Source: Escherichia coli (GTDB lineage Bacteria > Pseudomonadota > Gammaproteobacteria > Enterobacterales > Enterobacteriaceae). From it: a stretch of DNA of 7,641 nucleotides. The notes under the pieces are model-generated. The model made no database searches. It was given only the letters and a program-made list of their open reading frames with translations, and was not told the DNA's origin. The stretch lies in assembly GCF_003334255.1 (NCBI RefSeq), contig NZ_QOWU01000095.1; one strand, written 5' to 3'. A program made the translations under genes and the position numbers. Positions 331-598 of the stretch are shown here, one piece after another (position 1 is the stretch's first letter; each line of letters starts with the position of its first letter).

Positions 331-505
331 TTTGTTCTTCCTCTTCGTCTTTTATTTCGTGATATGAGTAATTGCAGTAGTTAAAGAAAATATCTTTTGC
401 TTCGTCATGTATTTCATCAGGCGTCGCATCATCATCCACTTCGAATTCATCCTCGAAATCTCCACCGGCTATTCCCGTTTCAATAATTATTTTAAACTTT
501 CGCAT
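323..505 (-). CDS. Small acidic hypothetical phage protein, 60 aa
   Basis: ORF-track ORF with a true ATG at 505..503. An AGGAGG lies at 534..529, separated from the ATG by a GNRA-loop hairpin (513..528). Same strand and tight spacing with neighbouring genes. Confidence 0.5.
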   Translation of the reverse strand: MRKFKIIIETGIAGGDFEDEFEVDDDATPDEIHDEAKDIFFNYCNYSYHEIKDEEEEQNG

Positions 506-598
506 TTAACTACCGCCCTTTCGGGCGGCCTCCTGATGTTCTGAGGGTGCAGAAATCCCTCCGGTTAAGGATTAAATTTTTAACAGAGCTAAATTTAA

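Follow-up and report, generated by a model that had tools for sequence, protein, structure and literature searches.

A Candidate Hairpin-Bridged Ribosome-Binding Site Shared by Accessory Genes of Lambdoid Prophages in Escherichia coli

This analysis suggests that a 60-aa gene of an Escherichia coli lambdoid prophage is translated from a "split" ribosome-binding site, in which a hairpin bridges the Shine-Dalgarno (SD) sequence and the start codon, and that the same element acts as a shared junction for gene shuffling. From the sequence comparisons detailed below, we would give this reading a probability of roughly 0.55. The 16–18-nt GNRA-capped hairpin would be folded almost always in the early rightward mRNA, and would be looped out upon binding of the 30S subunit. 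Located at the stem's 5′ foot, AGGAG(G) would then pair with 16S rRNA, and the AUG, 6–7 nt past the 3′ foot, would be placed in the P site. SD and hairpin would together form a self-contained 24-nt cassette, able to serve several unrelated accessory genes, and the identity of this cassette between phages would offer a junction for gene exchange. As the stem is local and very stable, SD and start codon should stay exposed whatever gene lies upstream. We infer that the folded hairpin can be accommodated by the 30S subunit, that it is AGGAGG which serves as the SD, and that recombination is promoted by the cassette. In an A-form stem, the two feet lie about 18–20 Å apart, i.e., about three nucleotides of extended chain. 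Such a gap would bring the effective spacing to about 9–10 nucleotide equivalents, a figure derived from general RNA geometry.

Genomic Context

The window, i.e., the whole stretch of 7,641 nt that was analyzed, belongs to a Rac/Qin-like lambdoid prophage of E. coli, and its positions 300–700 (401 bases queried) are 100% identical to E. coli phage vB_EcoS-640R1. The minus strand carries the early rightward operon, with dicC/cro-like, cII/YdaT-like, O-like replication and Ren-like genes, phrog_1621, the 60-aa gene (DUF7167) and phrog_519. The plus strand carries a cI-type repressor gene, ydfC, DicF, dicB and ydfD, and by its DicF, dicB and ydfD this strand can be recognized as that of the leftward operon, of dicB type, in a Qin/Rac-like prophage. 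The DicF antisense RNA is full-length (Rfam RF00039, 76.7 bits, E 4e-16) and sits between the ydfC-like gene and dicB. The sRNA family STnc100 gave a match below threshold (38.8 bits vs. a gathering score of 47, E 8e-6), which immediately follows DicF and overlaps the region upstream of dicB. These two matches and a chance lncRNA match were the only ones returned by cmscan for the window at E up to 1. Coordinates are collected in Table 1.

Table 1. Features of the window (position 1 is its first nucleotide; minus-strand features are given in mRNA sense).
Feature	Positions	Strand	Description
A/T-only inverted repeat	599–571	−	left arm AUUAAAUUU (599–591), right arm AAAUUUAAU (579–571), 11-nt loop AGCUCUGUUAA
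Stop codon of phrog_1621	601–599	−	overlapped by the left arm of the A/T-only inverted repeat
Upstream half of the long form	573–535	−	AAUCCUUAACC, with variable linker AGAACAUC
Anti-SD-like segment UCCUUA	570–565	−	identical to the 3′ end of 16S rRNA
SD-like segment GGAGGG	562–557	−	
Possible upstream hairpin, GAGGG/CCCUC	561–557/547–543	−	CCCUC is also anti-SD-like
SD AGGAGG	534–529	−	from sequence; last G (529) can pair with U512
Hairpin CCGCCC-GAAA-GGGCGG	528–513	−	6 G-C pairs plus optional G529.U512; GNRA tetraloop
5′ arm	528–523	−	
Loop GAAA	522–519	−	
3′ arm	518–513	−	
Spacer UAGUUAA	512–506	−	A/U-rich; UAA 508–506 in frame with the 60-aa gene
60-aa gene (DUF7167/phrog_1997)	505–323	−	start AUG 505–503; ORF, PHROG and Pfam profiles
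DicF	5174–5225	+	full-length antisense RNA
STnc100 match	5237–5377	+	sub-threshold
dicB	within 5295–5588	+	ORF
ydfD	5531–5776	+	

Anatomy and Fold of the Site

On the minus strand, the message reads CAGAACAUC, AGGAGG, the hairpin, UAGUUAA and the AUG of the 60-aa gene. The original prediction had described the SD, the 6-bp stem, the GAAA loop, the spacer and the start codon, and this anatomy proved exact, as did its arithmetic: from the last G of AGGAGG to the A of the AUG, 23 nt separate the two signals in the linear chain, and 7 nt when the 16-nt hairpin is folded. ViennaRNA adds a seventh pair, G529.U512, which leaves AGGAG as the free SD, at 6 nt from the AUG. The SD is thus more than about 15 nt away from the start codon, and the hairpin lies wholly between the two, leaving 6–7 nt.

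The hairpin has a predicted energy of −15.5 kcal/mol (z = −3.0, ViennaRNA), and its stem pairing probability is 0.98–1.0 when folded within contexts of 141–166 nt. Among 20-nt local hairpins on both strands of the window, it is the most stable one; when the whole window was dinucleotide-shuffled 20 times, the best value obtained was −15.4 kcal/mol, short of −15.5. A 22-mer of the element occurs a single time in the window, for a chance expectation of 0.00. In the context of phage ArgO145, the SD itself is predicted to be unpaired (P 0.94–0.98).

A GC-rich stem-loop with a GNRA-type loop, located in a lambdoid early operon, could also be an intrinsic terminator or a boxB-type nut antitermination site, yet we consider this extremely improbable. 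No U-tract follows the stem on either strand (tail UAGUUAAAUG), and neither a promoter nor a terminator was called at the hairpin in a scan of positions 1–1500 on both strands. The tetraloop is closed by a C-G pair and differs from the 5-nt boxB loop, and the boxA-like sequence found upstream (AGCUCUGUUAA) is not conserved in other copies. The site moreover lies far downstream of the immunity region, beyond the replication genes; in other phages it is found in the ea region, and its positions are varied. No Rfam family was matched at 500–600 when the whole window was searched with cmscan at E up to 1.

Start Codon of the 60-aa Gene

The original prediction had named an alternative start with a conventional site among the observations that would speak against bridging by the hairpin. 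No such start was found. The frame is closed by the in-frame UAA directly 5′ of the AUG, so that no upstream extension is possible in the window; the spacer UAGUUAA contains no other SD, and no alternative start for the gene was seen. The phrog_1997 profile aligns over positions 1–57 of 57, from residue 1, the Pfam profile DUF7167 also covers the protein from residue 1, and a homologue with 64% identity also begins with MRKFK, with four synonymous differences within these first five codons. Profile coverage from residue 1, together with synonymous changes in the MRKFK codons, indicates that AUG 505–503 is the real start.

Two further candidate explanations were rejected. A coding function was discarded for the element, given the in-frame UAA of the window and start distances of 6, 7, 8, 9, or 11 nt that differ by gene, which means that no reading frame is conserved through it. 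Translational coupling to an upstream ORF was rejected as well: the hairpin is not spanned by any ORF in the window, and 93 nt separate it from the upstream stop.

Some database proteins of 84–93 aa (P0002–P0009) extend DUF7167 upstream through the entire element (MNFIKSLTGGISAPSEHQEAARKGGSE-MRKF...). These extensions arise where the in-frame UAA is UGA-shifted, and such entries are probably artefacts of gene callers. The start codon is lost in some copies: contigs L062 and L091 have AUA in place of AUG, and P0003, which represents a cluster of 139 sequences, has R instead of M.

Spacing and the Genes Behind the Hairpin

The same AGGAGG plus hairpin was found in front of at least five gene families, as listed from exact-pattern scans of IMG/VR and thus among the matches listed. 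We designate them family A (DUF7167, 60 aa), family B (phrog_1832, 72 aa), family C (a 43-aa ORF), family D (a 158-aa protein), family E (Ea22-like proteins, phrog_660) and family F (Q-like proteins). The N-terminus of F is related to that of E (phrog_3323), so that E and F are not independent.

Across the matches listed, the distance from stem to start was 6 nt in 43 copies and 7 nt in 127, and otherwise 8, 9, 10, or 11 nt. Considered by distinct junction, families A to E show 6–9 nt and family F shows 11 nt. The spacers (UAGUUAA, UAAGAA, UAAUGAAAA, AACAGAUA, UAACAAAUA, etc.) are A/U-rich and devoid of GGAG; family F alone brings its own GGAG past the hairpin (UGGAGAUAAUA). Homologues lacking the hairpin carry SDs at 4–7 nt: GGGGGAG-6-AUG in family A, AGGAG-6-GUG and GGGAG-4-AUG in family B, AAGGAG-6-AUG and GAGGA-7-AUG in family E. 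The ordinary SDs of these hairpin-less members of A, B, and E indicate that the cassette substitutes for an ordinary SD.

This pattern bears on the proposal, already given as the alternative in the original prediction, that the hairpin is mainly an element of mRNA stability or processing. It would act as a structural insulator or shield the upstream message from 3′-exonucleases, and the downstream genes would be translated weakly, or from A/U-rich leaders without recourse to AGGAGG. Such a role would suit a very stable hairpin found at intergenic positions of a long polycistronic operon, one which is still present where the rightward unit ends, beside convergent cassettes and with no downstream start, and behind which one family (F) supplies its own GGAG. 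However, a pure 3′-end element does not need a distance of 6–9 nt to the start at five unrelated junctions, nor has it any reason to abut a conserved GGAG directly. All the hairpin-less homologues carry good SDs, which implies that these genes normally use one. In ArgO145, moreover, the hairpin goes with the downstream gene and not with the upstream one. We regard the stability proposal as unlikely. The GGAG of family F and the copies without a downstream gene do indicate that the hairpin can persist without serving a start codon.

Conservation of the SD and the Stem

Within 65 distinct copies, the four positions of GGAG (columns 41–44) vary in 0, 0, 1, and 2 copies, while the 8 nt located 5′ of it and G45 vary far more, in up to nine or more copies. 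The loops GAAA, GAGA, GGCA, GUCA, and GAUA keep the first G and the last A and are free at positions 2 and 3; the loop AAAA occurs in copies without a downstream gene.

Over the same 65 distinct copies, 96.2% of stem cells are paired. Two of the six pairs are changed on both sides, and shuffles reached the observed values in 17–49 of 500 cases, which makes this control marginal. One change is from G-C to A-U (CCACCC/GGGTGG, three contigs), with the A.C intermediate also present, and another from C-G to A-U (L214). Each of the five C's in the 5′ arm is changed to U in some copies, which keeps a G.U pair. A single stem mismatch was found in about 20% of an unbiased sample of 120 contigs, such stems still reaching about −11 kcal/mol. 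The ratio of wobble pairs to mismatches among non-Watson–Crick cells is 25:15 in mRNA sense and 8:32 in antisense, an asymmetry inflated by the first search pattern, which at two positions accepted no bases other than C/T. This asymmetry points to the mRNA as the selected molecule. All copies lie within about 15% divergence, so that much of the conservation may reflect recent common descent.

Structure-dependent initiation, as originally predicted, thus fares well on several counts, namely a distance that stays at 6–11 nt, at least five unrelated genes, the lack of a second SD, the SDs of hairpin-less homologues and the conserved GGAG, but weak stem covariation tells against it. Cross-genus covariation was not obtainable from species-representative genomes: in data with one genome per species, a stem-degenerate pattern retrieved only two canonical copies. 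Both are on "Collinsella sp." MAG contigs (L304 and L305), which carry the canonical E. coli prophage element with a DUF7167 gene; this assignment is most likely a binning error. That species representatives yield only these two probably mis-binned copies indicates that the element is essentially borne by E. coli prophages. A protein-based search of IMG/VR for divergent DUF7167 loci returned only 100%-identical copies; the divergent loci were taken from a search for homologous proteins, followed by retrieval of the contigs encoding them.

Distribution and Exchange of Genes at the Cassette

A BLAST search in which the query was limited to 75–81 nt of the intergenic region found the element in 19 phage records. 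Of 5,426 complete E. coli genomes, 2,604 (about 48%) were also found to carry it, at a total of 4,250 places and with up to seven copies per genome; these places are nearly always unannotated. It is absent from the Rac prophage of K-12. In 2.37 Mb of related phage DNA, essentially no other recurrent arrangement of SD, hairpin, and start was detected.

On one side, homology between phages ends precisely with the 3′ foot of the stem (give or take UA); on the other, it stops just 5′ of TCAGGAGG. The breakpoints fall at the edges of the cassette, which was found in two alternative 5′ contexts and with no fewer than five gene families on its 3′ side. ArgO145 and Stx2a phages have an extra 70-aa gene (phrog_4659) upstream, whose stop lies 4 nt before AGGAGG; despite this extra gene, SD and hairpin remain attached to the 60-aa gene. 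Where the original prediction saw a hairpin inserted between an SD and its start codon, these junctions show instead SD and hairpin as one portable 24-nt unit common to many genes.

In a few contigs, a convergent two-gene cassette directly follows the hairpin, with no downstream start. This arrangement, seen in L033, L298, and the second copy of L023, consists of ORFs of 184 aa and 97–105 aa on the opposite strand, about 13 nt past the hairpin; it replaces the downstream gene, with a junction exactly at the 3′ foot. In phage Rac-SA53, the ORF behind the cassette is the 43-aa one, and it is interrupted by an IS1 (L002, 1594–2359) inserted 28 nt past the hairpin.

A seventh family, the P2-like small terminase of contig L109, was rejected: the 21-mer is there part of the coding sequence itself, with an in-frame AUG upstream and a PHROG profile that begins 27 positions earlier. 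This exact 21-nt copy of GGAGGCCGCCCGAAAGGGCGG (L109, 11456–11476) is read as ..AQEAARKGGN... and is either a coincidence or a hint at the origin of the hairpin sequence.

Red/RecT-type recombinases are reported to use short homologies. The element could be boundary sequence only, kept as microhomology for lambdoid recombination or through recent spread, its hairpin having no role in expression. The sharp ends of homology at the stem foot and 5′ of TCAGGAGG favor such a reading, as do the number of copies per genome, the low divergence and the weak stem covariation, and short conserved boundary sequences have indeed been proposed for lambdoid mosaicism (concept cited in PMC3029335). The cassette resembles them as a short block of identity with unrelated genes on either side in different phages, but the proposed boundaries have no expression role, whereas the cassette combines an SD and a stable hairpin at initiation distance. 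A boundary role alone leaves unexplained the presence of an SD and an extra-stable tetraloop hairpin at that distance, the conservation of GGAG and of the G..A loop beside a variable linker, and the dominance of wobble-preserving changes in mRNA sense. Taken by itself, we judge it quite unlikely; it is nonetheless compatible with the hairpin-bridged site rather than exclusive of it.

The Long Form Upstream of the SD

In the window, the SD is preceded by additional sequence, the whole being referred to here as the long form. The motif AAUCCUUAACYGGAGG is, in other phages, the ordinary ribosome-binding site of the 70-aa phrog_4659 gene, which is absent from the window. The upstream half in the window (AAUCCUUAACCGGAGG...) corresponds to that site, so that the long form looks like a remnant joined to the cassette, i.e., what is left of the 70-aa gene's ribosome-binding site after its fusion to the cassette. 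The upstream GAGGG/CCCUC hairpin has a predicted probability of about 0.84, and 98.8% of its cells are paired, a value to be read knowing that the search pattern fixed its 5′ arm. The copies in L124 (1218–1228), L168, L220, L240, L285, and L296 have, in place of its loop, a run of G's whose length varies (GGAGGGGGGGGCUGC...) and which looks like a slippage-prone homopolymer tract. Further upstream, the A/T-only inverted repeat appears as a hairpin in the 141-nt MFE structure; its boxA-like loop is not kept in other phages.

Hairpins at start sites are classic repressor operators. The element might thus be an operator for a phage or host RNA-binding repressor, or an SD/anti-SD switch involving UCCU, GGAGGG, and CCCUC, in either case tuning accessory genes that are possibly toxic. 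Indeed, the long form offers two SD-like and two anti-SD-like segments, and folding predicts that the real SD is partly paired with the upstream UCCU or CCCUC, depending on the fragment, part of it having a P(unpaired) of 0.05–0.23; this predicted pairing also weighs against the hairpin-bridged site. By contrast, the free loop positions 2 and 3 argue against a sequence-specific recognition of the loop, the short form of ArgO145 lacks the upstream segments and leaves the SD free, and no candidate repressor protein was found. We consider regulation of this type very unlikely as the role of the element; for the long form, an SD/anti-SD switch and the mere scar of a lost gene are both possible.

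Comparison With Known Systems

Hairpin-bridged initiation is known from phage T4. In genes 38 and 25, a hairpin located between SD and AUG reduces the distance from 22 to 5 nt and from 27 to 11 nt, respectively, and mutations that destabilize it lower initiation (PMC3014915, review). The original prediction had noted this likeness, and a direct reading of the gene 38 sequence (UAAGGAG, an 8-bp stem with a UUCG loop, AAAU and AUG; −16.7 kcal/mol) revealed an identical layout. At both sites, the SD is located at the 5′ foot of a GC-rich stem or overlaps it, the stem bears an extra-stable tetraloop, and the AUG comes after a short A/U spacer; in both, a linear distance of about 22–23 nt is brought to 5–7 nt, and the energies are close (−16.7 kcal/mol in T4 vs. 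−15.5 kcal/mol in the cassette). They differ by their loop, UUCG in T4 and GAAA in the cassette. Since they show no sequence similarity, the relation to the gene 38 and gene 25 sites is one of analogy and not of homology. Gene 38 is furthermore one late gene of a virulent phage, whereas the multi-copy cassette belongs to temperate phages, where it stands before several early or accessory genes unrelated to one another, and function was established by mutation in T4, while that of the cassette is predicted from sequence. The junction of T4 genes 26 and 25 similarly has a 16-nt hairpin between SD and AUG (27 to 11 nt) and, as observed here, this hairpin is kept among close relatives only (PMC3014915). 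Its stem is, however, weak (centroid −5.6 kcal/mol over 61 nt) and rich in A/U, with a gap of 2 nt between SD and stem, and the T4 site is gene-specific where the cassette is portable.

From the point of view of gene exchange, the cassette may also be compared with the promoter-stem-loop cassettes (PeSL) of T4-type phages, which have been proposed as mediators of gene shuffling. Both are repeated stem-loop regulatory motifs flanking shuffled accessory genes in hyperplastic regions. PeSL, however, include an early promoter and have their stem-loop upstream of the ribosome-binding site, whereas no promoter was detected in the cassette and its stem-loop lies inside the ribosome-binding site.

Significance

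The mechanism proposed here is already known from T4; what is new is its setting in temperate lambdoid prophages, its abundance, and the fact that a single cassette precedes several genes unrelated to one another. In the literature searched, we found no paper containing the hairpin sequence, and none linking DUF7167 or Ea22 to such a site. If true, this would be, as far as our limited check of the literature shows, the first split ribosome-binding site outside T-even phages, and the first that, far from being a quirk of a single gene, works as an interchangeable cassette shared by many. In practical terms, the start codons behind the cassette are mis-handled by gene callers, as illustrated by the entries of 84–93 aa for a protein of 60 aa, and the cassette might find use as a natural, context-insulated ribosome-binding part.

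A broader extension, tentative and in our opinion rather doubtful, would make the element a portable, self-insulating cassette, in which the looped-out hairpin exposes SD and start codon for any promoterless accessory gene placed behind it. As a preferred crossover point, it would merge expression signal and recombination linker in a single sequence, present in about half of E. coli genomes. As a concrete case, the cassette makes it possible to test how accessory genes that are exchanged between prophages could arrive ready for translation.
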